64,000 bases of DNA from an archaeon (GTDB lineage: Archaea > Nanobdellota > Nanobdellia > Pacearchaeales > GW2011-AR1): NCBI GenBank assembly GCA_018651925.1, contig JABIDC010000009.1:16403-80402 (forward strand), given 5' to 3'. Below are positions 2,044-63,661 of the stretch, one piece after another. Both the position numbers and the translations under genes were made by a program. Every line of letters begins with the position of its first letter. Positions within the stretch are counted from its first letter, which is position 1. Below the pieces are notes generated by a model. It worked only from the letters and a program-made list of their open reading frames with translations. It was not told where the DNA came from and made no database searches.

Positions 2044-2463
2044 ATGGCAAAAAAAGCTGAAGAAACAAAAATTGAAGAAAAAGTAGTTAAAACTAAAGTA
2101 GAAAAAAAAGAAACTAAAGCAAAAAAAACTCCTAAAGCAAAAAAACCAACTCAAGCAGAGTATGAAAAAATGGTTTTTGATTTAGCAGAAAAAGGAATGA
2201 CTTCAGAAAAAATTGGAGAATCTTTAAGAAAACAAGGAATCCATCCAAAAGAATTTAAGGGAAAAATTGGAAAGATTCTTGGAGAAAAATATGTTAATCC
2301 AGATTTAAAAAATGTTGAAGAAAAATTAGAAAGAATCAAAACACACTACGAAAACAATAAACAGGATAAAAGAGCAAAAAGAGAAAAAGACAGAATTTTC
2401 TCTCAATTAAGAAATCTTAAGCTTTATTTCAAAATTCCGATTATAAAAAAGAAAAAGAAATAA
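2044..2463 (+). CDS. rps15: 30S ribosomal protein uS15 (S13e/S15P) with Lys-rich N-terminal extension
   Basis: The segments LAEKGMTSEKIGESLRKQGIHP and HYENNKQDKRAKREKDRIFSQLRNLKLYFK match the S13_N plus S15 pattern (lakkGlspSqIG..LRDqyGip; HLe.n.kDk.skr.L...esrirRL.kYyk). Confidence 0.8.
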   Translation: MAKKAEETKIEEKVVKTKVEKKETKAKKTPKAKKPTQAEYEKMVFDLAEKGMTSEKIGESLRKQGIHPKEFKGKIGKILGEKYVNPDLKNVEEKLERIKTHYENNKQDKRAKREKDRIFSQLRNLKLYFKIPIIKKKKK

Positions 2464-2493
2464 TCCTTCATTTTTTTAAACCAGTTTGTTTTT

Positions 2494-3858
2494 GTGCCAT
2501 ATTTTAAAATGGAAGAGGTTAATAGCACACTAAAAGAGAGAATAAAACAAGTTGCAAATAAATTTCTAAAAAATTCCAAAAATCAAGAAATTCAAATAAT
2601 CTCGCACTTTGATACAGACGGAATTACTTCTGCAACAATAATGCTTCAAAGTTTAAAAAAATTAGATCAAAAATTCACATTAAAAATTGTAAAAAGTTTA
2701 GATGAAAAATTTATTCAATCATTAAACAAAGAAAAAATAACCTTATTTCTAGACCTTGCATCAGGAAGTTTAAATCACATAAAGAACGCAGAACTAAAAG
2801 AAGTTTACATCATAGACCACCACGAAATCAGCAGTGAAATTCCAGAAGAAATAAATTTCATAAATCCAGAAATATTTCAAGAAAAACAAAGAATTAGTGG
2901 GGCAGGGCTAACTTATTTATTTTGCAAAGAATTAGATCCAACAAACAAGGAATTTGCTAAGCTAGCAATTCTCGGGATGATTGGAGATTCTCATGAAAAA
3001 GAAATAGACACATTAAATCATGAAATTTTAGACGAAGGAGAAATCATCAGAAAAAAAGGACTCCTAATTTACCCTTCAACAAGACCCCTAAATAGAACAT
3101 TAGAATATTCTTCTTATCCATACATTCCAGAAGTCACTGGTAATATAAAAGGAGTTTTAGAATTGTTGCGGGAAGCGGGATTAAAACCAGAAGATGGAAA
3201 ATATAAAAGCTTAATAGAATTAAATGAAAAAGAAATGGAAAAATTGACAACAGCAGTAATGCTGAGAAGTCCAGATTCAAAAAATAGGGAAATTGTTGGA
3301 AAAATATTTTTAATAAAACTTTTCAATAAATTAGAAGATGCTAGAGAAATTTCTGCAAAAATAAATGCTTGCTCAAGATATGGCGAACCAGAAACTGCAA
3401 TAGGGCTTTGTATGGAAATTCCAAAAGCAAAAAGGAAAGCAGAAAGCATTCATGTAAAACACAGACAATCAATTATCGCAGGATTAAAAACAGCAAAAGA
3501 AATTGAAAAAGTAGAAGGGAAATTATTCACAATAATTAATGCAAAAGAAAAAATAAAAGACACAATCATTGGAACAATTGCAAGCATATTGTCAAATTCC
3601 ACAATGTATGAGGAAGGAACAATAATTACTACAATGGGATACTGTGAAGATAAAATAAAAATTTCTTCAAGAATTGCTGGAAGAAATGGCAGGAACGTCA
3701 GGGAATTATTAAGTAGGATTATTAATGAAATTGGAGGAGAAGTGGGAGGCCACGCAATGGCAGCCGGAGGAATGATTTCTCAAGAAAAAGAAGAAGAATT
3801 TATTCAAAAACTAAAAAAACAACTTGAAATTGAAATGGTTAAAGTTGTTCAAGAATAA
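2494..3858 (+). CDS. RecJ/GAN-like DHH-DHHA1 phosphoesterase (archaeal Cdc45/RecJ homolog)
   Basis: DHH-family motifs are present: HFDTDGITS, IIDHH, GMIGDSH, and the DHHA1 motif GGHAMAAGG near the C-terminus. The ORF track starts at GTG 2494, but ATG 2509 is the more likely start. Confidence 0.75.
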   Translation: MPYFKMEEVNSTLKERIKQVANKFLKNSKNQEIQIISHFDTDGITSATIMLQSLKKLDQKFTLKIVKSLDEKFIQSLNKEKITLFLDLASGSLNHIKNAELKEVYIIDHHEISSEIPEEINFINPEIFQEKQRISGAGLTYLFCKELDPTNKEFAKLAILGMIGDSHEKEIDTLNHEILDEGEIIRKKGLLIYPSTRPLNRTLEYSSYPYIPEVTGNIKGVLELLREAGLKPEDGKYKSLIELNEKEMEKLTTAVMLRSPDSKNREIVGKIFLIKLFNKLEDAREISAKINACSRYGEPETAIGLCMEIPKAKRKAESIHVKHRQSIIAGLKTAKEIEKVEGKLFTIINAKEKIKDTIIGTIASILSNSTMYEEGTIITTMGYCEDKIKISSRIAGRNGRNVRELLSRIINEIGGEVGGHAMAAGGMISQEKEEEFIQKLKKQLEIEMVKVVQE

Positions 3859-15820: not shown

Positions 15821-17986
15821 TTAACTAAACATTCCCCCAAGAACTACTGAAGTTAAACCCACAAGTGCAAGAGTAGAAATTAATGCCACTACAAAATAAA
15901 GGACAATCCCAATCTTTAAATTTTTACCAATTTTATTTACCCTTACCAAATCATCCTTTCCCGAATCAATTGTAACCAAAGTTCCAGTTAAAATAAAAAT
16001 TATTTGAATCAAATAAATTCCAACCGCTAATTGCAAGAAATATGGGGGAATCATTGCTAGCACATCAAAAATATTCATAATATTTTCCACTCCTGCAATT
16101 CCAATATCTTGGCCAGCATCTAAAGAAGTTTGCATTTTTCCTAAAATCGAAGTAATCATAACAGATAATCCAACAACGACTCCAGAAAGTAAAGGTGCCA
16201 AAAAAGTCATATTACTTTTCATATCTGAAATTACTTCTGCTAACAAATCATTAAGCCTTACAGAAATCTTATTAATATTTTTAACATACTCCGAAATACT
16301 CATTAAACTCACTGCAGCAATTTTCAATCCTTTTTTAGAAGATTCAAGAAAAATTCTCATTGAAGTCGCAATTAATTGAGAAGGATAATAAATTATTGCT
16401 CCACGATTTTTATCAAAAATTGCTTTCTCTACACTCATTCCCGCATTCCGAATATTAAAATCAATTTTTCTAAAAAAATCCTCAATATTCAATCCGCGAG
16501 AAGACTCTGCAACTTTTCCAAAAACTAATTCCGGAGGAACCCCATTTCCAACACGATTTCCTAATTGGAATAAAGAAGAATTAAATTCCTTTTCTAGATT
16601 TCGGGTTTTCTCTCGCTCAACAATTAAATCTTTAGTTTTAGCATTATATGCAATGATAAAGAAAAAAGCTAACCCCAGAGGGAAAAACATTCCAAGCAAA
16701 GTTGCACCTAACCCAAAAGGCCCAACAGTTTGACCAGCATTATCTATAAATCCGAAAAACATCTCATTCTCTCCCATAAATCCTAAACCAAGTTCCCCAA
16801 AAGAATAATCGCTTTGCAAACCCATTAATTCCGGAATTGGAGTATACCCGAAAATCAGAGGCAAAATTCCTAACAAAAATAATGGAAAACAAATCACAAA
16901 AGCTTTTGTAAATACCGAATTATCTTTGTACTTAGGATACAAAGGATTACGTTCAAGAAGATCAGTTTCCCCATGACCCCCTGGACGAAGAAGTAAAACT
17001 TTGTCTGTTAAATAATAAACAAAAAAAGGAACAATCATATTAAATAAAATAACAACATGAACCCAAGTAACCAATCCTCCCAACATTGAAGATGCAAGAG
17101 GGATCATTGCTAAAGACAATGTTGGCAAAACAACCCCTAACATATAAACATTTGTCAAGGGACTTCTAACAGAATGACTAAACTTAAGCATCTTATCATA
17201 AACTCCATCAAGAACAACCTGTAAAGATTTTTCCAACGTAGCAATTCTCCGATTTTGGTCTGGTTCAAATAAACTTCCTTCAATCAAATGAAAAGCCTCA
17301 ACAAACTCAGAAGAATAGTCTCTCCAAGTTTCCAAATAATTATCTAAACTTTCCTTAATTGTAGAAAATTTTCCAATTTCAACATTATAAAATACTTTTT
17401 TAAAATCCAAACTTAAAGGATACTGTAAATGATCTGAAGCAAAAGCAATTGCTTTTTCTAAATTAGGAGTATGCCTCATATAAACTACAACATACAAAAT
17501 AGCTGGGACCATCTGACTAGAAGCCTTAAGTCTCCAAGAATTAGCAAGTCTCTCTGGATAAGCATTAATAAAATAATACAAGAACATGGATAAAATTAAA
17601 GAAAGAAAGAAAAACAAAAAAGGAAAAGCTCCATTAATAAATAACGCTGCTAAAGAAGCAAACAACCCAATTAAAAAAACCGCTAAAAAACTCATCATCC
17701 CCAATGAAAGGGCTTGCCAAGGTTCTAAGTCCAAATGTGCAATTTCCAAAGATCTCCGAACTTTTACTGCATCTTTTTCAGCAACCTTTATTTTAATTAT
17801 GCTTCCTAAACTTTTACACCATCTTTCATATCTAGAAAGTTCAGAACTCATTTCTCCCCGAAACTTTGAATAATCTTGACTATAATTAGAATCACTCCCT
17901 CCGCCATTCATTTGGCTTTCAATTTTGCCCCCATACTTTTGCAAAACTTCTTCTACAGTCGGTTTTTTATTAGAACCCATATGCAC
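15821..17986 (-). CDS. Polytopic membrane protein (721 aa, about 10 TM), candidate pilus platform protein (FlaJ/TadC/T2SSF-like)
   Basis: The call rests on position between the pilins and the secretion ATPase, and on an architecture of TM pairs separated by two soluble helical regions. The T2SSF assignment is by context, not by a recognised motif. Confidence 0.5.
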   Translation of the reverse strand: MHMGSNKKPTVEEVLQKYGGKIESQMNGGGSDSNYSQDYSKFRGEMSSELSRYERWCKSLGSIIKIKVAEKDAVKVRRSLEIAHLDLEPWQALSLGMMSFLAVFLIGLFASLAALFINGAFPFLFFFLSLILSMFLYYFINAYPERLANSWRLKASSQMVPAILYVVVYMRHTPNLEKAIAFASDHLQYPLSLDFKKVFYNVEIGKFSTIKESLDNYLETWRDYSSEFVEAFHLIEGSLFEPDQNRRIATLEKSLQVVLDGVYDKMLKFSHSVRSPLTNVYMLGVVLPTLSLAMIPLASSMLGGLVTWVHVVILFNMIVPFFVYYLTDKVLLLRPGGHGETDLLERNPLYPKYKDNSVFTKAFVICFPLFLLGILPLIFGYTPIPELMGLQSDYSFGELGLGFMGENEMFFGFIDNAGQTVGPFGLGATLLGMFFPLGLAFFFIIAYNAKTKDLIVEREKTRNLEKEFNSSLFQLGNRVGNGVPPELVFGKVAESSRGLNIEDFFRKIDFNIRNAGMSVEKAIFDKNRGAIIYYPSQLIATSMRIFLESSKKGLKIAAVSLMSISEYVKNINKISVRLNDLLAEVISDMKSNMTFLAPLLSGVVVGLSVMITSILGKMQTSLDAGQDIGIAGVENIMNIFDVLAMIPPYFLQLAVGIYLIQIIFILTGTLVTIDSGKDDLVRVNKIGKNLKIGIVLYFVVALISTLALVGLTSVVLGGMFS

Positions 17987-18029
17987 CTCTATAAAAAATA
18001 GAAAAACTAATTAATAAATCTTTAGAAAA

Positions 18030-21000
18030 TTAATTTTTATCTAAATTACTTTTAAAAGAATTATATTTATTTTTCCTCTCAAAAAAATGAATCAAAAGAA
18101 AAATAATTACAATTAAAATTGCAAAAGAAATTCCAATTAAAAAGTATTTGAAAAAATTATTTTTTTCTCCATTAACCATTCTAGCGATAATTGCAACTTC
18201 CCCTAAAGAATCTACTTCAGAAGAGAAATAAACAAAAATTTCATCACGGCTGATTTCACTTGTTAAATATTCCTTCGAATGAGACAAAGAATATAATGTT
18301 ATATCTGTCGCATTCAATAAATTCACTTCTATCCAAGAAAGAGGAACTTTGAAATACACTTTCCCCCGAACAAATCCAGAATCTGAACTCAAATTAAAAA
18401 TCTCGTAATTAATTATTTCCGAATCTAAGAAATAATCTGATTCATTTAAATCTCCAATTTCGAAGTTAAATCCTGTTCCAACATGCTCAATTTCTGCAGA
18501 ATAAACAGAGCCCCCCTCAAAAGAAAAATTACTTTGAATAGAATCTAGCTCCTCCCCCAAATAAAGATCTCCATCATCTCCAGAATAGGGGGAATCATCT
18601 CCTCCATTAGGACTCCCCGAACCAGGACTATAATCATCTGGAGTATCTCCCTCTGGCTCTGGTTCCCCACAATCTGAATCATTCAAATCAATAAATTCAT
18701 CACAATCATTATCTAAACCATCTTCACAAAGTTCAAAAACTCCTTCCAAAGGAGAACAATCACTCACTTGCGATCCTTCCTCGCAGATTAAAATCCCCTT
18801 ATTTACGCATGACCCGATTCCACAAGTTGTTTCATTTCCAAACCAAGATTCATCAATTCCATCTTCAGTAGATTCATCGCAATCATTATCTAAACCATCA
18901 CAAAGTTCTGGTGAGCCAAGAACTCCTGGAGCACAAGTATCTAATTGAACCCCTGCTTCACAATTAAAAACCCCTATATTTGAGCAAGCCCCAATTCCAC
19001 AATTTGTTTCATTTCCAAACCAAGATTCATCAATTCCATCAGTTGTTTCAGAATCACAATCATTATCTAAATCATCACAAATTTCCTCTTCTCCCGGATT
19101 AATATTTGAATTTTCATCATTACAATCTCCATGTCCAATAAATCCAATCTCTCCACTACATCCTCCCGCCTCCAAATAATATCCATCTTCATCTCCATCT
19201 GTACAGGTAGGAATTGTTTCAGTATCATAATATTTAAAGTCAGAAATAATTTCTTCCCCTGCACCATTAACATAAGAACAAGCCCAATTAAAAGCCCCAT
19301 TCAATCCTCCAATATTAAAAGTTTTAGAAGCAGTAATTCCAGTTAAGCCACATTGAGCAGTAGAATACCTTGCAGGAAAATTATTAACTAAATTTAATGC
19401 ATCCACTCCGCAAGAAGAAACTGGATCAAAGGAAAGATCGTCTGTAATCAAAACTAAATCTGGATAAGTCCAATATCCATCCACCGCAGCATCTATAATT
19501 TGGATATTTTTAGTTCCAGAAGTAGTTGAAACGTAACTTAATCCATTTTCCCAAGTAAATCCTCCGCTTCCATCCCCAAAAATTGGGCTCATATAATTTT
19601 CAATTCCAACTTGCCAAGTCCGATCACTCCCCCCAACATCACTTCTTGCAAAAACTGAATAAGTTCCAGAATCTAAAAATAAATTATAAGTCATATTTGA
19701 GCTTCCATCAGTTCCTTCTTCACTGATTGCATGTCCTAATGCGCTTGCAGTATTTTCAACAAAGACATTATTATCTTCACAAGATTCTAAACCAAAACAA
19801 ACATCCCATTCAGATTCAGAAAAATTAAATTTCTCTGCTTCTAAAAAATAATATTTATTAGATAAAAGTTCCTCTGTTTCCAGGATTTGCTCAACCCCAT
19901 AAGTTTCTTTTACTAAAGAAATACTCTGAATTCCTGTTGGATCCTCAATATCACAAATAAATTCCACAGTAGTTTCTCCCCCAGCACCATCAAAAGGAGA
20001 AGAAGTTATTTCTGGTACACATTGATCATCAAACCCATTACAATTTTCATCGATGGAATTCCCACAATTTAACAAAGGACTTTCAGCTTGTTGGCCAAGA
20101 AAAGGATTACAAGTTTGAGGAACACCGGCAACACAATTTTGAATAGTATTTGTGCAGATCCCTTCTCCACAAGTAGTTTCTCCTAAATATTCGTCAGTGT
20201 TATAATCACAATCATTATCTATTCCATCACAAATTTCCTCGCTTGGAACAATTGCTCCAACACACACACTCCAAATTCCACTCTCGCAAGTTTGTATTCC
20301 TTGTGTACATTGCCCTTCAGAAATTCCACAAGCCCTAGTTTCCCCATTAGTAGAACAACTTCCTCCAGTTCCCAAGGCAAAATTAAAATCAGTTTCTTGG
20401 GTAATTGTATACTCTCCAACTTCTTCAATGGTATTTTCATATTGAACATAAAATAGATGGGGTGTCATGGATGTCCTATTATGAACTCCCGAAGATCTCA
20501 TATCTCCTTCCTCATAATATTCTGTAACAATTAATCTCGCTTCTCCTACAACATTCGTTATTTCGGAAATTGTTTCCGGCAAAGAACTTGTTGAAATTGC
20601 AGTCACAATCGCATTTTCTAAAGGAGTTCCAGAAGCATCAGTAACCCTCACATTCACATACCATTGCTTAGAAAGATCATAAAGAGAAGTGTCTGTACTT
20701 GCGGTAAAAAAGTAAGCATCTTCTTCAAAACCATTCTCAAAATGATTATTTATCAACCTAATTCCAGGAGCTGTTGCACGATAATATCCAAATCTAATTG
20801 CAGATTCTGGCATTGAAGGCGAATAATAGGGATTGTCTACTCTTACAAAAGTATTATTTTCTAACCACTGATTTGCAGAATCTCCATAAAAAGAATTTAT
20901 CCATAATGCCTTATCATTTGTTTCAATATAATTATCTTTGAACAAAGGGTTTCCCTCATTATTATATGCATCTCCTCCAATATAAAATGCAAATACTGGA

Positions 21001-22655
21001 CTATCATCTCCTGCAGAAGTTTTTGTAACATAATATTTATTATTCCAAATCTGATTATTTTCTCCAGCAGCAGAATAAAATATTCCAGTTGTTACAGGCA
21101 TACAATTGTCATAAGCAGTTTCAAAATCTCTCCCTTCAATGTAAAAAGTATTATTTATTACATGATTATCATGGTTTGATCCACTTCCATAATCATTCAT
21201 TCTTATTGCATTCGTTGAATAATCTTCATTAATATATTCAACATTACAAGTAGCAGTTCGAACATAAAAAGTATTGTTTGTTATTTTATACCCATTACCT
21301 GAATAAACTAAAATACCACTTCCTTCAATTGGATCAAAAACATTATTATGGATAACTGGATTTATTGCACCACTATGAATGATCGCATAATGATTTGTTG
21401 ACTGAGCATTATTTCGGATATAATTGTATGAAACATTTGTTCCAACTCCCCCTAAACGAATTACTCCTTGCCCCCCAATCAAAGTATTATTATATAATAG
21501 CCCACTTCCCATAACAACATTTTCTTCAATGCTATTTTCTCTAGCAAAATACCATGGCATACTAACTTCTAAATGATTATTGTAAACATCTCCCCCCGTT
21601 CTTACCGTCCTAGATTGCATCCCTTGAACTCTAACATCCAAATCATGAAATTTTCCCATTGGAGCAGCAGAAGTTCTAAGAGCATAAGAATTTAAATTTT
21701 CATTTCCAATACGAATATTTCCATTCATAACTTCTAAAACTGGACGCCGATAATTATAATCTCCTAAATCTCCAGAATCCCAAGAACCTTGAAAATCTTG
21801 ACCAGGATAATTAACTTCTAATTGGCCCCCATAATTATATGAACTTCCACCAATAACTCCATAATCAGAATTAGGAACAATTCCAGTTCTATCAATATAT
21901 GCATAACCTTGTGTGGTTATTCTCATCTTATATTGCCCAGTATTATTTGCAAGAAATTTACAACCGAAAGATTTTCCCCGAAAAAAGCCCTCAGAAGTTT
22001 CTGAACAAATTAAATTATTATTTGCATCATATACATCAATTGTTAAGTCAGCAGTTTGAGCGCGGCCAAAAGTGGCATAGGCCACATATTCTCTTGGTGC
22101 AATAGGTAAATTAACATAAGAAGATTCTATACTCAGTGCATCTGCAGTATATAAAACAAAGTCCCCATGCATTGGTTGATAATAGGAAGTATTTCTTGCT
22201 TCAACAGTTCCAGAAAGAACATTCCAATTAATAGGATTATTTCCAGACCATAATTCAAAACCATTATTTGAAAGAGTTTGATAATCTGCTCCAGAATAAG
22301 TAAGAGTATATCCATTTAAGTCAATTGTAGTTGTAAATTTCTCTTCAGGTTGACCAACAAAACGTGTTACAATGCAAGATCTATCACAATTTAAATCTCC
22401 AGATAAAATAAAATAATAATCTGCTCCAGAAGTATCATCCAATACATAAACATCCCATTCAGAAAGATACTCGTAATTTGCACCAGATTGCCCAGGAACA
22501 ATTTCTTCACAATTATCAACAGAAATACCTGCACAATTAATGTCTCCGATTGCATATCCCGTGAGATTTCCGAATCCAATATAAGAAAGAAAGAACCCAA
22601 TTAATAAAAGAGCAACAACTGCAAATAAAAAATAACTCTTAATCCCCTCATTCAT
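18030..22655 (-). CDS. Giant (1541 aa) membrane-anchored surface/adhesin-like protein
   Basis: It has an N-terminal signal-anchor and a region of repeated NN(T/V/H)F/NNxY turns typical of parallel beta-helix (PbH1) repeats. A CarboxypepD_reg-like segment (VNVRVTDASGTPLENAIVTA) follows. At least six Cys-rich CDGxDNDCD modules of the MopE-type putative metal-binding kind come next, then an acidic Pro/Gly linker, a PGF-pre-PGF-like segment (VYFKVPLSWIEVN...GEVAIIA) and a C-terminal TM helix. Confidence 0.75.
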   Translation of the reverse strand: MNEGIKSYFLFAVVALLLIGFFLSYIGFGNLTGYAIGDINCAGISVDNCEEIVPGQSGANYEYLSEWDVYVLDDTSGADYYFILSGDLNCDRSCIVTRFVGQPEEKFTTTIDLNGYTLTYSGADYQTLSNNGFELWSGNNPINWNVLSGTVEARNTSYYQPMHGDFVLYTADALSIESSYVNLPIAPREYVAYATFGRAQTADLTIDVYDANNNLICSETSEGFFRGKSFGCKFLANNTGQYKMRITTQGYAYIDRTGIVPNSDYGVIGGSSYNYGGQLEVNYPGQDFQGSWDSGDLGDYNYRRPVLEVMNGNIRIGNENLNSYALRTSAAPMGKFHDLDVRVQGMQSRTVRTGGDVYNNHLEVSMPWYFARENSIEENVVMGSGLLYNNTLIGGQGVIRLGGVGTNVSYNYIRNNAQSTNHYAIIHSGAINPVIHNNVFDPIEGSGILVYSGNGYKITNNTFYVRTATCNVEYINEDYSTNAIRMNDYGSGSNHDNHVINNTFYIEGRDFETAYDNCMPVTTGIFYSAAGENNQIWNNKYYVTKTSAGDDSPVFAFYIGGDAYNNEGNPLFKDNYIETNDKALWINSFYGDSANQWLENNTFVRVDNPYYSPSMPESAIRFGYYRATAPGIRLINNHFENGFEEDAYFFTASTDTSLYDLSKQWYVNVRVTDASGTPLENAIVTAISTSSLPETISEITNVVGEARLIVTEYYEEGDMRSSGVHNRTSMTPHLFYVQYENTIEEVGEYTITQETDFNFALGTGGSCSTNGETRACGISEGQCTQGIQTCESGIWSVCVGAIVPSEEICDGIDNDCDYNTDEYLGETTCGEGICTNTIQNCVAGVPQTCNPFLGQQAESPLLNCGNSIDENCNGFDDQCVPEITSSPFDGAGGETTVEFICDIEDPTGIQSISLVKETYGVEQILETEELLSNKYYFLEAEKFNFSESEWDVCFGLESCEDNNVFVENTASALGHAISEEGTDGSSNMTYNLFLDSGTYSVFARSDVGGSDRTWQVGIENYMSPIFGDGSGGFTWENGLSYVSTTSGTKNIQIIDAAVDGYWTYPDLVLITDDLSFDPVSSCGVDALNLVNNFPARYSTAQCGLTGITASKTFNIGGLNGAFNWACSYVNGAGEEIISDFKYYDTETIPTCTDGDEDGYYLEAGGCSGEIGFIGHGDCNDENSNINPGEEEICDDLDNDCDSETTDGIDESWFGNETNCGIGACSNIGVFNCEAGVQLDTCAPGVLGSPELCDGLDNDCDESTEDGIDESWFGNETTCGIGSCVNKGILICEEGSQVSDCSPLEGVFELCEDGLDNDCDEFIDLNDSDCGEPEPEGDTPDDYSPGSGSPNGGDDSPYSGDDGDLYLGEELDSIQSNFSFEGGSVYSAEIEHVGTGFNFEIGDLNESDYFLDSEIINYEIFNLSSDSGFVRGKVYFKVPLSWIEVNLLNATDITLYSLSHSKEYLTSEISRDEIFVYFSSEVDSLGEVAIIARMVNGEKNNFFKYFLIGISFAILIVIIFLLIHFFERKNKYNSFKSNLDKN
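18660..19100 (-). repeat. Internal tandem duplication (about 180 nt / 60 aa period) encoding CDxLDNDCD...WFGNET.CGIG.C modules inside the giant gene
   Basis: On the plus strand, ccaaaccaagattcatcaattccatc...tcatcacaaa recurs near 18838 and 19018. The protein repeats are ICDDLDNDCDSETTDGIDESWFGNETNCGIGAC and LCDGLDNDCDESTEDGIDESWFGNETTCGIGSC, plus a truncated third copy. The bounds are approximate. Confidence 0.7.
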
Positions 22656-22692
22656 AAAAAAATAATATCTTTTACCTTAATAAAGTTTTATA

Positions 22693-23334
22693 TCACATTC
22701 TTCTTGCTTCATTTTTCTTCTTAGCAAGATAAGAGCCAATCAAAAAAACTAAAATTGCTAGGACAACTATAGAAATTAAAATTAAAAAAGCAATTTTAAC
22801 AGAAGAATAATCTTTTTCCACTGAATTATCCACGATAATTGCAATTTCTCCAAAATAATTTAAAATAGAATTATAATAAACAAATTCTTTGTCCCTTAAA
22901 ACTTCCCAAGTAGGATTTTTCCTTTCATCTAATATCGAAAACAAAACAATTTTTGAAGAATCAATTTTATTCTCCTGGAATCAACTGAGAGGGATTTTAA
23001 AATAAATTCTATTTTCTACAGATTCTCCAAAAGATTCAACTTTAAACAAATCATAAACAAATATTTCTTGAAAAGGATAATTCACTTCTTCTACTCCAGA
23101 AAGATTCAGATCAAAATCCTTTTCTCCAGAAATTTTGATTAAATAAATTGAATTATTTGGAAAACGAAAATCTATTAAAGAAATATTATTTTCTTCTAAA
23201 TTTAAACTTTTTTCAAAAGGAGCCTCAGGACCAAAAATTACCCCTCCTGTGAATGAAAAAGAATTTTTAACAAAGAATAAAATAATACCAATTACCAAAA
23301 ACCCCAAGAGAAAATAAAACTTATTAACTTTCAT
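22693..23334 (-). pseudogene. Small membrane-anchored PGF-pre-PGF-like protein, paralogous to the giant protein's C-terminus, interrupted by one in-frame TGA (22981-22983)
   Basis: ORFs 22981..23334 and 22693..22944 are in the same frame and are separated only by the TGA. The downstream piece has no ATG (the track starts it at TTG). The read-through sequence YFKIPLS*FQEN...GEIAIIV aligns with the giant protein's YFKVPLSWIEVN...GEVAIIA. Confidence 0.65.
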
Positions 23335-23379
23335 ATTGAAAAAAATAATTTAATGTTAATAAAAGTAACCCAAATTCAA

Positions 23380-24390
23380 TTAAAGTTTTGCCACAAGAAT
23401 TTTCAAATTAACTAAACTAATTCCCCCTAAGAAAAGAGAATAAAAATAATAAATTATTCTTTGCAAAAATCCGACTAATAAAGCCAAAGGAGGAGGAACC
23501 CCCATGACAGTATACAGCAAAGTCATAATGCTCTCCACAATCCCCATCCCTCCCGGAACAGGAGAAAGATTACCAATAATTTGACCTAATGTAAAAACAA
23601 TAATAATTGAAAGGAAATTTAAATGGCCCCCAAATGCAAAAAACAAAAAGTATGCCGTGAAAAAATTCCCTGCCCAAAACAAAATTCCAAATAAAACCCC
23701 AATGAAAAAAGTTTTTTTATTCTTCAAAATTTTCTCAAAGGACCCATAAAATGAATGAAATTTAACCCGAAGATAATCAATGAAAATTTCTTCTGTCTCA
23801 AATCTTCTTTTAAGAAATTTCAACCAATAAACTTTTCTAAAAAAAGTTTTCCAATTAGAACGAGACTTTTGAAAAATAATATAAAAAACAATAAAACTGG
23901 ACAAAAATACAAAACAAAGAACTCCAAACAAAATCCACTTTAAACTACTTGGAATCGGCACATAGAAAAAAACAAAACATATTGAAAATAAAACAAACAG
24001 AAATAAGACCAGCATCCGGAAAAAACTATCTGCTATAACTCCTCCAAAAACTTCACTTTTAGATTTACCATATTTTGAAGCGAGATAATGTGCTCGAAAA
24101 GGTTCTCCTCCAACACCCGCGGCAGGAGTAACGGTATTAAAAAATGCCCCTGCCAAAGTAACCTTCATAAAATAAAAAAAATCAAATTTTAAAAAACCTG
24201 CAAAAATATTTTTCCAATTAAAAACCGTTGAAACAAAAGTCAATCCCGTTGCCAAAATAGCTAGAAGAAACCAACCAATTTTAGCTTGAGAAATTAATAA
24301 ATAAACTTCATAAAAATTAATATCCTTTAAAACAAAGAGTAATAAAAAAAAAAGAATTAAAATTCCAAGAACATTTTTTATCTTTCCCAT
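23380..24390 (-). CDS. Polytopic membrane protein, flippase-like / LPG-synthase-TM (UPF0104) family
   Basis: It has about 8 TM helices. The N-terminal pattern (K..l.iliLffll..l..i.f.ev...i..a...wlllai) and the GGEPFR-type loop (GVGGEPFRAHYL) are typical of that family. Confidence 0.55.
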   Translation of the reverse strand: MGKIKNVLGILILFFLLLFVLKDINFYEVYLLISQAKIGWFLLAILATGLTFVSTVFNWKNIFAGFLKFDFFYFMKVTLAGAFFNTVTPAAGVGGEPFRAHYLASKYGKSKSEVFGGVIADSFFRMLVLFLFVLFSICFVFFYVPIPSSLKWILFGVLCFVFLSSFIVFYIIFQKSRSNWKTFFRKVYWLKFLKRRFETEEIFIDYLRVKFHSFYGSFEKILKNKKTFFIGVLFGILFWAGNFFTAYFLFFAFGGHLNFLSIIIVFTLGQIIGNLSPVPGGMGIVESIMTLLYTVMGVPPPLALLVGFLQRIIYYFYSLFLGGISLVNLKILVAKL

Positions 24391-24442
24391 AAAATACCAA
24401 AAATAAAAATCCTTAATAAAGGTTTTCTTATTTTATCTAAAT

Positions 24443-26728
24443 TTAAAACTTTTTAGATTTTATCTTTTCATTCAACCATTTTTGCCACTCGGGGAAAACT
24501 CTTTCGCTAGTAGGAAGCCCAATTTCTTGAATAATATTATCTGAAATCTTATGAAAGGAATCATTTGCAATAACACTAAAACCTGCTTCAAGAATTTTAT
24601 CATTCTTAATTTTTTTAGAAACCTCTACAAGCTCATTTTTTATTTTTGAACGAAGCAAAATATTATCATAAACTGCATCCCAATCTCCTGCCCAACCTTT
24701 TACATTAGCAGCAATATCTTTTATTATTTCACTATCCCCATTAATTAAATCGTCTGTGGGTTCTAGCTCATCTTTCTCCACATTATATTTCATTAAATCA
24801 ACAAAACCTTTTTCTTCCATCGGATCTTCTGTCCAATGCTTTCGAATTTCAGATAATTGTAAAAGTCTTCTCCACGAATGCATTCCATCAGGAGACTTAA
24901 TTGGATTTGCAACAGCAATAATGTCTGTTGCCTTAAAACTGGTTTTAGGAACACCCAAATCATTTACCACCCGATCATAAACCCCATAAGGTGATGCTCC
25001 ATGAATTGTTCCTGCAACAACATTCGCAAGAGCTCCAACACGCATAGCTTCATACAATGCTTTTGCTTCTTCCGAACGAACTTCACCAAGAATCAAAGCA
25101 GAATCTCCTAAACGCAAACTTGTCCTAATTCCATCCTCTGCAGAAACCTCTGCAGTTGTTTTCAATAAAGCAGAACGAACCTTCATCCTTAAAATATCAT
25201 AATTCAAATTTCTTAAGGCAGTAACAGGCAATTCCAATGTATCCTCAATTACAATCACTCTATTCTTAGGGATAATTTCTAACATCAAACTTCCCAACAA
25301 AGAAGTTTTTCCTGAACTTCTAGTCCCAGCAACAAGCATCGTTCTTGCTCCATCAATTAAAAAACTCAATAGTCCTGCAGATAAAGGGTTAACCATTTTA
25401 TTTTTTATAAATAAAGGGAGAGTCCAAGGATCTTCCCTATGTCTTCTGATTGAATAAGCAAGACCATCGGGACTCAAAGGTTCTTGAATAATTGCAACTC
25501 TTGCACTAATCTTCCCAATTTCCAATTGAGTATCTAAAATCGGATTTGCTTCATTCAGCGGCCTACCAGAAATCATTCTAAATTTCGCAGCCCAAGAATC
25601 TGCATCTTCTGCACTAGGTAAAATATTTGTTGAACATTCTCCGTGAATTCCGTGGCGAACAAAAATATTCACTTTTGGAATGGGTGCATTTAATGAAATG
25701 TCCTGAAGATGTTTATCTTGTAACAAAACTTCTAATAATCCAAAACCAATTGTATGCCTAACTAAAATTATTGAAAGATTATTTAATTCCGAATAACTCA
25801 AACGAATACTTTTTGAATTTGCAAGATCCGAAATCAAATCTTTTGAAATATTAAAAAATACTTGTCTAATTCTATCTGTATCGGTAAATTCCTTTGCTTT
25901 TGGTTGGTGTTCCATCAAAGTTCCTCTCGCTAAATTCAAAAGAGAATTAAAATCCTCACTCAAAGAATTCTCAGGAGGACTTAAATGATAAATAAGTTTT
26001 GCTTCATCTTTTTTCTTTAGAATTGTTACTAAAGATTTATCATAATCTTTACCAATTTCATATTGATCAATAATCTCAGAATCTCGAGGCAAATCAAAAA
26101 CTAACCGAGTAAAAGTAAAATTCGGGATTACATCTGGCTTAAAGATCAAACGATAAACTTCCCTGTCTCCCGTGGAATAATCTGAAAGATAAGGCAAAAT
26201 CAAAGAAATCAATTTAGTTTTTTCAAATAAAGAGATTAATTTTTCTAAATAGTAAATATAATTTGCAAAATCAGATTTATTTTCTTCGCCAGCTTTTGTT
26301 GAATCAATTTTTGCTTCAATTAAAAATTTTCTAAGTTCATGATATGCATAGATTGGATCTTTTTTTAATACGCTCAAAAAAGAAAACATTGAATTGTATC
26401 TTTTTGAAAACATTGCTTCATTCGAACTAGCTAATTTTTCATGAGATAAAATCCTCTCTTGTTTTAGCAAAAAAGTGTAAAAATTTGCAACCTCTAAAAG
26501 ATAATTTGTTTCTTTCATATCATAATTATAATTTTTCTGTTGAACAAAAACAATTCTCGAAACATTCTGATTTTCAATTAACAAATCGACAACTCTTTCC
26601 ATAATTTCTGGCATCTCAACTAAACTCGGAATAAAGGGCGCACCTACAAAATTAACATACATCACATCTTCTCCACCTTCTCTCGAAACCTCGTAATCAT
26701 ACAATGGAGCATCCTTCCCAAATTGCAT
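24443..26728 (-). CDS. Type II/IV secretion system ATPase (FlaI/VirB11/GspE family) with long N-terminal extension (761 aa)
   Basis: Motifs include Walker A VAGTRSSGKTSLLGSL, VIVIEDTLELP, the Walker B/His-box region LILGEVRSEEAKALYEAMRVGA...GTIHG, and LQDISLNAP in the upstream region. Confidence 0.85.
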   Translation of the reverse strand: MQFGKDAPLYDYEVSREGGEDVMYVNFVGAPFIPSLVEMPEIMERVVDLLIENQNVSRIVFVQQKNYNYDMKETNYLLEVANFYTFLLKQERILSHEKLASSNEAMFSKRYNSMFSFLSVLKKDPIYAYHELRKFLIEAKIDSTKAGEENKSDFANYIYYLEKLISLFEKTKLISLILPYLSDYSTGDREVYRLIFKPDVIPNFTFTRLVFDLPRDSEIIDQYEIGKDYDKSLVTILKKKDEAKLIYHLSPPENSLSEDFNSLLNLARGTLMEHQPKAKEFTDTDRIRQVFFNISKDLISDLANSKSIRLSYSELNNLSIILVRHTIGFGLLEVLLQDKHLQDISLNAPIPKVNIFVRHGIHGECSTNILPSAEDADSWAAKFRMISGRPLNEANPILDTQLEIGKISARVAIIQEPLSPDGLAYSIRRHREDPWTLPLFIKNKMVNPLSAGLLSFLIDGARTMLVAGTRSSGKTSLLGSLMLEIIPKNRVIVIEDTLELPVTALRNLNYDILRMKVRSALLKTTAEVSAEDGIRTSLRLGDSALILGEVRSEEAKALYEAMRVGALANVVAGTIHGASPYGVYDRVVNDLGVPKTSFKATDIIAVANPIKSPDGMHSWRRLLQLSEIRKHWTEDPMEEKGFVDLMKYNVEKDELEPTDDLINGDSEIIKDIAANVKGWAGDWDAVYDNILLRSKIKNELVEVSKKIKNDKILEAGFSVIANDSFHKISDNIIQEIGLPTSERVFPEWQKWLNEKIKSKKF

Positions 26729-63218: not shown

Positions 63219-63336
63219 GAAAGACAGCTTGAAAGGTTTGCGTCTTGCGGGACACTACCGCCAACAACATAAGGGGCTTAACTTCTGTGTTCGGAAAGAG
63301 AACAGGTGTTTCCCGCCTTACTATGGCCGTCTTCAA
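63219..63336 (-). rRNA. rrf: 5S ribosomal RNA
   Basis: The reverse complement contains GGCCATAGTAAGGCGGGAAACACCTGTTCTCTTTCCGAACACAGAAGTTAAGCCCCTTATG.... Helix I forms as GAAGACGGC/GCTGTCTTTC, and there is a GTGTC-CCGCAA-GACGC hairpin. A T-run follows on the transcribed strand. The ends are accurate to within a few nt. Confidence 0.8.
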
Positions 63337-63554: not shown

Positions 63555-63661
63555 GCCCAAGTAACTCAGCCTGGATAGAGTGCTTCCCTCCTAAGAAAAA
63601 GTCATCGGCTTTTTATCGCGGAGTTAGGAAGAAGTCGAAGGTTCAAATCCTTCCTTGGGCG
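63555..63661 (+). tRNA. tRNA-Arg (anticodon CCU) with a 32-nt intron at the canonical 37/38 position (about 63594-63625)
   Basis: The acceptor is GCCCAAG/CTTGGGC, the D stem is ACTC/GAGT, and the T arm is GAAGG-TTCAAAT-CCTTC. The anticodon stem CTTCC...GGAAG is interrupted after CTCCTA by agaaaaagtcatcggctttttatcgcggagtt. Confidence 0.85.

Follow-up and report, generated by a model that had tools for sequence, protein, structure and literature searches.

A mosaic beta-helix surface protein, probably glycan binding, in the variable slot of a pilus-like locus of a Woesearchaeota archaeon

We analyzed a 64,000-nucleotide stretch of contig JABIDC010000009.1 (GenBank assembly GCA_018651925.1; hereafter the window) and in particular one gene within it, an open reading frame (ORF) of 1,541 codons that a preliminary description, made from the sequence alone, had presented as a mosaic surface protein. 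The ORF is real, and nearly all of the elements listed for it are present (Table 1). We consider it probable that the gene encodes a tethered glycan-binding, possibly depolymerizing, surface protein that belongs to a variable DPANN repertoire and was inserted into the cargo slot of a pilus locus. A Woesearchaeota (DPANN) archaeon would secrete the product as a type I membrane protein, tethered by a single C-terminal transmembrane helix whose basic tail stays within the cell, with an ectodomain of ~1,460 residues outside. From the membrane outward, the ectodomain would consist of a PGF-pre-PGF-type domain, an acidic flexible linker, Cys-rich spacers (disulfide- and probably Ca2+-stabilized) around a lectin module like carbohydrate-binding modules 35 and 6 (CBM35/6), an immunoglobulin (Ig)-like domain, and a distal head. 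This ~730-aa head, for which we infer glycan binding and catalysis, may recognize polysaccharides or the glycans of glycoproteins, and perhaps cleave them, either on the envelope of another cell or in the environment. What we show here is the ORF with its topology and folds, how its family is distributed, that the gene is mosaic, and how variable the slot is.

A hydropathy scan found exactly two hydrophobic segments, at residues ~3 to 32 and ~1499 to 1529, the second followed by a basic tail. These correspond to the N-terminal signal-anchor and the C-terminal transmembrane helix of the preliminary description, whose acidic Pro/Gly stalk was located at residues 1331 to 1365. At the position of the N-terminal segment, which might itself be a cleaved signal peptide, orthologues have a classical signal peptide or a lipobox. 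A class III prepilin signal ([KR]-G-[EQA] immediately before a hydrophobic helix) was sought at the N terminus (MNEGIKSYFLFAVV...), and the motif is not present. The 46 Cys residues are distributed over the head (8), the first Cys-rich block at residues 765 to 880 (14), the middle module (6), and the second block at residues 1149 to 1330 (18). When the whole protein and six segments were compared with Pfam, only MopE scored above its cutoff.

The head was modeled with AlphaFold2 (AF2) over residues 30 to 775 using a 15-sequence alignment, which yielded a predicted local distance difference test score (pLDDT) of 85 and a predicted template modeling score (pTM) of 0.85. In the model, a beta-helix cap is followed by an inserted jelly-roll (~129 to 270), a ladder of short strands (~306 to 654), and a beta-sandwich (~658 to 761); the ladder fits the NNxF turns of the sequence, six of which (NN[TVHK][FY]) fall between residues 437 and 636. 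A Foldseek search of the head against the PDB and BFVD returned beta-helix tailspikes, capsule depolymerases, and GH87 glucanases with E values of 1e-6 to 1e-9 and probabilities of ~1.0. The best PDB matches (E values of 1e-6 to 1e-5) were tailspikes and capsule depolymerases (4ru5, 7w1c/7w1d, 7vul, and 8x8m) and GH87 alpha-1,3-glucanases (7c7d and 6k0v), whose right-handed parallel beta-helix is about as long as that of the head. In Pfam searches of the protein itself, isolated segments included, beta-helix models remained below their cutoffs (NosD, 13.5 bits against 23.6; Beta_helix, 8.3 bits against 25.9), and among 15 homologues Beta_helix (PF13229) matched five (best E value, 7e-7) and NosD (PF05048) four. 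The ~500-aa beta-helix with NN turns that had been proposed for this region is thus borne out as a fold by AF2, Foldseek, and the Pfam matches of homologues, but it scores below the Pfam thresholds in the protein itself and is interrupted by the jelly-roll.

The jelly-roll insert resembles CBM4-2, CBM61, and CenC-type domains (8xmz, 2xom, and 2y6j), with Foldseek template modeling scores (TM-scores) to the target of 0.57 to 0.67, and CenC-like matches for it were also found in BFVD. No Pfam CBM family matched the head or the middle segment at E values up to 10. Toward the end of the head, the segment from residue 660 to 711 gave subthreshold Pfam matches to CarboxypepD_reg (PF13620; 18.8 bits, cutoff 32.3) and Big_1 (PF02369; 20.7 bits, cutoff 34.9), while 10 of the 15 homologues matched Big_1 and 9 matched CarboxypepD_reg at E values below 0.01. 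A CarboxypepD_reg-like segment had been expected here; a beta-sandwich is predicted and most homologues match, but in this protein the score lies under the Pfam cutoff.

The polar residues N421-H422-Y423, D441, E473, R485, and D488 are kept in at least 95% of 19 nonredundant sequences, some of which are only ~32% identical overall. The conserved polar motifs (TNHYAI, FDP, CNVEY, and STNxIRxNDY) would fit a groove for binding or catalysis. Several observations nevertheless weigh against a glycan-active surface protein. Part of the conservation (GSGIL and TTGIF) is the ordinary structural PbH1 pattern, and catalytic residues could not be assigned in the head. Global TM-scores between the head and beta-helix enzymes are low (0.13 to 0.30), the AF2 model of residues 760 to 1541 is poor overall (pLDDT of 47), and N-glycosylation sequons are not enriched, with 18 observed against 19.9 expected. 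At the sequence level, the head has no membership in any CAZy-type (GH28/GH87/PL), PDB, or PHROG family. Neither the protein nor the family profile, when searched against PDB sequences, gave anything meaningful (the best E values were 0.14, for MMP-8, and 1, for a transglutaminase-family Ig domain), and the head, three of its homologues, and the middle module had no match in PHROGs, on which ground we rejected sequence kinship with phage tailspikes. The head differs from the depolymerases that are its best structural matches in its 8 to 12% identity to them, in global TM-scores of 0.15 to 0.29, and in the absence of a PHROG, Pfam, or PDB sequence match, of a mapped catalytic residue, and of an identified trimerization domain.

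Outside the head, the terminal helix was predicted in the AF2 model of residues 760 to 1541, and residues ~896 to 1144 were locally usable (pLDDT of 70 to 90); no usable structure was obtained for the Cys-rich blocks or the C-terminal domain. The locally usable part belongs to the middle module, a region of ~268 aa between the blocks that had been described as ~300 aa of lectin- or CBM-like sequence. That description agrees with its CBM35/36/6-like fold (Foldseek TM-scores to the target of 0.55 to 0.72, with a model that is confident only locally). The two flanking Cys-rich blocks with their C-D-G-x-D-N-D-C-D core are present as well, with strict C-D-[GD]-x-D-N-D-C-D cores at residues 809, 1193, and 1252 and variants at residues 864 to 879 and 1310 to 1318. 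Pfam assigned four stretches to PF11617 (Cu-binding_MopE), with 59.9 bits for the whole protein and a cutoff of 27. On single blocks, PF11617 scored 48.2 bits for block 2 and 19.7 bits, under the cutoff, for block 1.

The Cys-rich modules had been thought to be borrowed from bacteria. Because units of 30 to 50 aa dominated by Cys, Asp, and Gly hold too little signal for a phylogeny, we judged their origin by codon usage and by their prevalence within the lineage. GC content at third codon positions (GC3) is 0.14 to 0.24 in all segments of the gene and 0.15 to 0.18 in the Cys blocks, no higher than in core genes of the genome (0.21 to 0.22). Nothing in the gene looks recently imported, and codon usage does not mark the Cys blocks as foreign. 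Furthermore, MopE modules are frequent in neighboring giant Woesearchaeota proteins (loci L002, L009, and L091), and ~50-aa units with 6 to 7 Cys act as spacers in many such giants. The modules are endemic to Woesearchaeota surface proteins, with native codons, and the proposed bacterial loan is not upheld; the part demonstrably common across domains is the ~730-aa head. In the same three loci, giant MopE-module proteins of 1,000 to 1,900 aa with varied heads (Laminin_G_3 or a Pel9A-like beta-helix) stand in tandem clusters (L002, 14304-24227; L009, 2565-6953; L091, 1-7926), which suggests a shuffling repertoire of Woesearchaeota surface proteins.

The family names "Cu-binding" MopE and NosD might be read as indicating a protein that handles metal, specifically copper, since PF11617 exceeds its cutoff and NosD gives a weak match. 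However, the NosD match is below cutoff and arises from generic PbH1 repeats, PF11617 is described only as a "putative metal-binding motif," no nos or copper genes were found nearby, and we found no sign of copper binding in the modules. Their acidic DxDNDCD core presumably recalls Ca2+-binding structural modules instead. We rejected the copper reading as an artifact of family names and regard it as very improbable.

At the other end of the protein, the C-terminal domain had been called a PGF-pre-PGF-like membrane anchor. NCBIfam model TIGR04213 scored 23.5 bits on the whole protein and 28.2 bits on residues 1400 to 1541 alone (cutoff 28), and the match covers only model positions 89 to 152 of 153. 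When the C-terminal 142 aa were used to look for homologues, a word-indexed search returned a single fragment, and an exhaustive search of 1.84 billion representatives with a 3-sequence profile found 59. TIGR04213 matched 55 of 58 proteins (57 retrieved and the one studied here), with a best E value of 4e-112. The domain lies mostly 40 to 130 residues from the C terminus, in proteins of 83 to 3,134 aa, of which 44 of 58 end in a transmembrane helix and basic tail and about three in a true PGF-CTERM. In the protein studied here, no PGF tripeptide occurs in the last 40 residues, and TIGR04126 (PGF-CTERM) gave no match to the C-terminal 142 residues at E values up to 1. Given the TIGR04213 matches and the prevalence of the helix and tail among these proteins, we take the domain to be of a divergent PGF-pre-PGF type, with an ordinary transmembrane anchor behind it. 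The name given to it earlier agrees with this reading, with the difference from PGF-pre-PGF proteins bearing a PGF-CTERM/archaeosortase A signal that only the last ~64 model positions fit, at borderline score, and that the anchor is a transmembrane helix and not an archaeosortase or lipid-anchoring sorting signal.

The nearest relative of the C-terminal domain is a 1,271-aa protein (P0022) on an archaeal metagenome contig (L091). It shares with the window protein a beta-helix head, a MopE module, a close C-terminal domain, a transmembrane helix, and a basic tail, but its head is a Pel9A-like beta-helix of another family, and its gene is one of a tandem series coding for giant MopE proteins, in a neighborhood that has no pilus genes. 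Since P0022 has the same overall design and a different head, the design appears to be a recurring template with interchangeable heads.

The head family is sparse and crosses domains. A search with the head found 38 homologues among 5.8 billion clusters, all annotated as hypothetical and many only ~735 to 850 aa long, i.e., consisting of the head alone; the named carriers were Woesearchaeota, a Nanoarchaeum sp., and a Kiritimatiellae bacterium. Among 185,579 GTDB species genomes, the head was found at 7 loci, with 54% identity in Myxococcales (L005), 50% in Bdellovibrionota (L004, chromosome OY764265.1), and ~36% in a paralogue from the same archaeal metagenome-assembled genome (MAG; L009). 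The genes around the Bdellovibrionota homologue offered no hint of its function. This copy ends in Gly-Gly-Cys, a transmembrane helix, and an Arg-rich tail (MYXO-CTERM-like), and a rhomboid gene lies just upstream of it. Homologues differ in their anchors, which are lipobox, dockerin-like, MYXO-CTERM-like, or absent, and the presence of the head on such different anchors marks it as an autonomous functional unit. In a neighbor-joining tree, the head family splits into two deep clades. The first contains the window protein with two homologues (P0002 and P0003), a trio that is sister to a group with the Myxococcales and Bdellovibrionota sequences (100% bootstrap for each group), and the second contains other Woesearchaeota sequences, including the paralogue of the same MAG.

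Identity along the protein is uneven. Against paralogue P0004, sliding-window identity is 30 to 50% in the head (~37% for the head as a whole) and 70 to 94% at residues ~800 to 1150, and the pattern is reversed against P0002. At the DNA level, nucleotides 2298 to 3795 of the gene are 79.5% identical to P0004. The middle module and its flanks (residues ~766 to 1265) form a cassette. As judged from the sequence comparisons, the gene is a true cassette mosaic, with a head of one clade and a middle cassette ~90% shared with a paralogue that has a head of the other clade.

Because the gene looks like a patchwork against different homologues, and because the neighboring small paralogue has an in-frame stop, the ORF might be an assembly chimera or a decaying pseudogene. 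However, the 4.6-kb frame is uninterrupted in a genome of low GC content (~31% in the window), GC3 is even and native along the whole gene, and every junction except that between Cys block 2 and the C-terminal domain is common to independent homologues. In addition, when genomes were scanned with the head, the initial 573 residues of the query (~30 to 602 of the protein) matched a contig of "Candidatus Woesearchaeota archaeon SI037S2_bin65" at 100% identity, and the protein cluster contains a second 1,541-aa sequence that differs at one residue and occurs on 4 further contigs from NCBI, JGI, and ENA assemblies. Among the contigs with this variant, an exactly matching gene order is shown on one of 174.7 kb. 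At least five contigs, drawn from separate assemblies, therefore carry the protein either identical or with one residue changed, beside the same neighbors, and it follows that the ORF is not a chimera, a possibility that the preliminary description had itself named as one that would defeat its claim. The artifact explanation is largely refuted already, and we regard it as exceedingly improbable.

A further alternative is that the protein is a structural part of the envelope, an S-layer or cell coat component in which the beta-helix and CBM-like folds act as scaffold. Archaeal S-layer-related proteins bear PGF-pre-PGF domains, S_layer_rel_Mac is among the profile matches, and a C-terminal transmembrane anchor is typical of archaeal surface-layer proteins. 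Against this, the family is sparse and patchy in both the cluster and the genome searches, comprises two deep paralogous clades with exchangeable cassettes, and has bacterial carriers with other anchors. These features argue for an accessory, variable surface protein and not a core lattice, and we consider a structural role decidedly unlikely.

The preferred reading, a tethered glycan-binding protein, has parallels in cultivated DPANN. Pectin-lyase-fold surface proteins of Nanobdella aerobiophila (MJ1_0451, MJ1_0701, and MJ1_0776) have been proposed to bind or degrade host glycans (bioRxiv 10.1101/2023.10.27.564410), and the same role has been proposed for proteins with lectin and pectin-lyase domains in Ca. 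Nanohaloarchaeum antarcticus (bioRxiv 10.1101/2023.02.24.529834). These proteins are likened to the window protein by description, not by sequence: they are large (0.9 to 1.3 kaa) and extracellular, with parallel beta-helix and Ig-like folds. The window protein differs in having an inserted CBM4-like jelly-roll, MopE blocks, a CBM35/6-like module, a PGF-pre-PGF domain with a transmembrane anchor, and a site in a pilus locus. Our literature search on PGF-pre-PGF, archaeal PF11617, and Woesearchaeota pili and adhesins found nothing specific. Since modular beta-helix/lectin surface proteins of DPANN have already been described with the same tentative role, the gene represents no new mechanism or kind of system. 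It is nevertheless a concrete, reproducibly assembled candidate in organisms that depend on contact with host cells, and its head defines an uncharacterized beta-helix family for which Pfam has no dedicated model and which reaches 50 to 54% identity in predatory bacterial lineages. Cassette shuffling and a variable cargo slot in a conserved pilus locus may also be useful for mining host-interaction factors.

Table 1. Features of the surface protein gene and of its neighbors in the window
Feature	Residues	Coordinates	Strand	Basis
Complete ORF, 1541 codons/aa, ATG...TAA	1-1541	18030..22655	(-)	ORF listing and sequence
N-terminal hydrophobic secretion signal or signal-anchor	1-36	22548..22655	(-)	Hydropathy scan
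Cap and first rungs of right-handed beta-helix, with DLNGYT motif	37-128	22272..22547	(-)	AF2 model, invariant columns
Jelly-roll inserted in beta-helix, CBM4/CBM61/CenC-like fold	129-270	21846..22271	(-)	Foldseek
Main beta-helix with NNxF asparagine ladder; TNHYAI, FDPIxGSGIL, CNVEY, and STNxIRxNDY family-invariant	271-657	20685..21845	(-)	Model, Foldseek, alignment
Ig-like/CarboxypepD_reg-like beta-sandwich	658-764	20364..20684	(-)	Subthreshold Pfam, model pLDDT >90, homologue matches
Cys-rich block 1, 14 Cys, CDGIDNDCD at 809	765-880	20016..20363	(-)	Pfam, motif scan
Small beta domain and CBM35/36/6-like jelly-roll	881-1148	19212..20015	(-)	AF2 local pLDDT 70-90, Foldseek
Cys-rich block 2, 18 Cys, three MopE-type units	1149-1330	18666..19211	(-)	Pfam PF11617, motif scan
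Acidic Pro/Gly/Ser low-complexity linker	1331-1365	18561..18665	(-)	Sequence, composition
Divergent PGF-pre-PGF-type domain (YFKVPLSW...GEVAII)	1366-1497	18165..18560	(-)	NCBIfam scan, profile search
C-terminal transmembrane helix and basic cytoplasmic tail, without PGF motif	1498-1541	18033..18164	(-)	Hydropathy, model, motif check
Small paralogue of C-terminal domain (signal, domain, transmembrane helix, basic tail), one in-frame TGA at conserved Trp position		22693..23334	(-)	Sequence comparison
LPG_synthase_TM (MprF flippase-like) membrane protein		23380-24390	(-)	Same family in slot of 7 related loci
Seven consecutive small proteins, [KR][KR]G[EQA] and hydrophobic helix		12078-15462	(-)	e.g., NKRGQGLS, NRGELTT, KRGEILV

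The gene lies between a gene for a 761-aa T2SSE/FlaI-like ATPase and one for a 721-aa polytopic platform protein, on the same strand and with gaps of 37 to 52 bp; an LPG_synthase_TM gene and the small paralogue of the C-terminal domain stand between it and the ATPase gene. On the 3' side of the platform gene are seven genes for proteins with class III signals and a Peptidase_A24 gene. None of these seven proteins matched any Pfam or NCBIfam pilin family. One of them, of 329 aa, is unusually large and contains Cys.

We compared the corresponding slot (17986-24443 in the window) across 80 metagenomic loci (L010 to L089) identified by their platform gene, whose product is 64 to 70% identical in 79 of them and 96% identical in L010. 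The ATPase is also present in 54 of the 80. The order of ATPase and platform genes is constant, the distance between them varies from 16 bp to 6.5 kb, and in roughly 15 of the 54 it is within 200 bp. Depending on the locus, the slot holds pairs of ~185- and ~165-aa proteins, LPG_synthase_TM (7 loci), Fibrinogen_C (L038), or unknowns of 587 to 852 aa. In L062 (3-3404, + strand), a protein of at least 1,134 aa with an intein splicing domain and a Peptidase_S74 domain (endosialidase chaperone, tail-fiber type) is encoded directly upstream of the platform gene. In L072 (3633-9924, + strand), a complete uvrA-uvrC-uvrB set is found between the pilus ATPase and platform genes, which indicates that the slot takes genes foreign to the cell surface. 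A homologue of the head or the middle module was found in none of the 80 loci. A protein with the C-terminal domain was found in three, directly upstream of the platform gene in L017 and L014 and upstream of the ATPase gene in L041, a weak hint of pilus association for the anchor domain alone. Meanwhile, the genes for P0002, P0004, and P0022 and the genome loci L004 to L009 are not beside pilus genes. We conclude that the gene entered a variable slot of the pilus locus as an insertion specific to its lineage and is not one half of a conserved partnership.

These results bear on the possibility that the protein is an adhesin coupled to the pilus, i.e., that it is coexpressed with the type IV pilus-like machinery and acts jointly with it, perhaps by docking at the base of the pilus or as the adhesin that the pilus brings to a host. 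The preliminary description had noted an adhesin-like architecture amid a pilus operon. As to position this is accurate, given the strand shared with the ATPase, LPG-synthase-like, small paralogue, platform, and pilin-like genes and the short gaps between them, but a functional tie is not borne out. Coupling would be consistent with this arrangement, with the C-terminal domain proteins of L017, L014, and L041, and with the lectin-like cargo of the slot elsewhere (Fibrinogen_C and Peptidase_S74). Conversely, neither the head nor the middle module has a homologue in any of the 80 related loci, the platform gene nearly adjoins the ATPase gene in a sizeable share of the loci that have both, the slot accepts genes as unrelated as UvrABC, homologues and the nearest C-terminal domain relatives occur in settings without pilus genes, and the protein has no class III signal peptide. 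Moreover, a TATA-like sequence (TTTATTAA) ~30 nt upstream of the ATG could be a promoter of its own. We therefore regard pilus coupling as unlikely.

A bolder extension of the preferred reading, which we rate as quite unlikely, is that the ~730-aa head is an unrecognized module for attacking cell envelopes, swapped across domains among organisms that live at the expense of other cells, with episymbiotic DPANN (Woesearchaeota and Nanoarchaeum sp.) and predatory Bdellovibrionota and Myxococcales as the carriers known. In the window it would have been fused to a long stalk and placed in a pilus locus, such that attachment and local degradation of host glycans would be coexpressed.

The small paralogue next to the gene is a single frame that a TGA at 22981-22983 cuts into ORFs of 117 and 83 aa. 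The TGA aligns with a Trp in the domain of the large protein (KIPLS*FQEN against KVPLSWIEVN), and the identical TGA-bearing sequence is present in two other assemblies (L003 and L090). Genome-wide recoding of TGA was rejected, as TGA ends 12 of the 54 long ORFs in the window. Probably a TGG>TGA nonsense mutation has become fixed here, or else the TGA is read through.

Elsewhere, the window carries archaeal hallmarks, namely, PolD DP1/DP2, Cdc6/Orc1, a tRNA that probably bears an intron, and 5S rRNA. Together with the 100% match to the Woesearchaeota MAG, these identify the organism as a DPANN archaeon. The tRNA match, of 107 nt at 63555-63661 (+ strand), adjoins other tRNAs and the 5S rRNA at 63219-63334.

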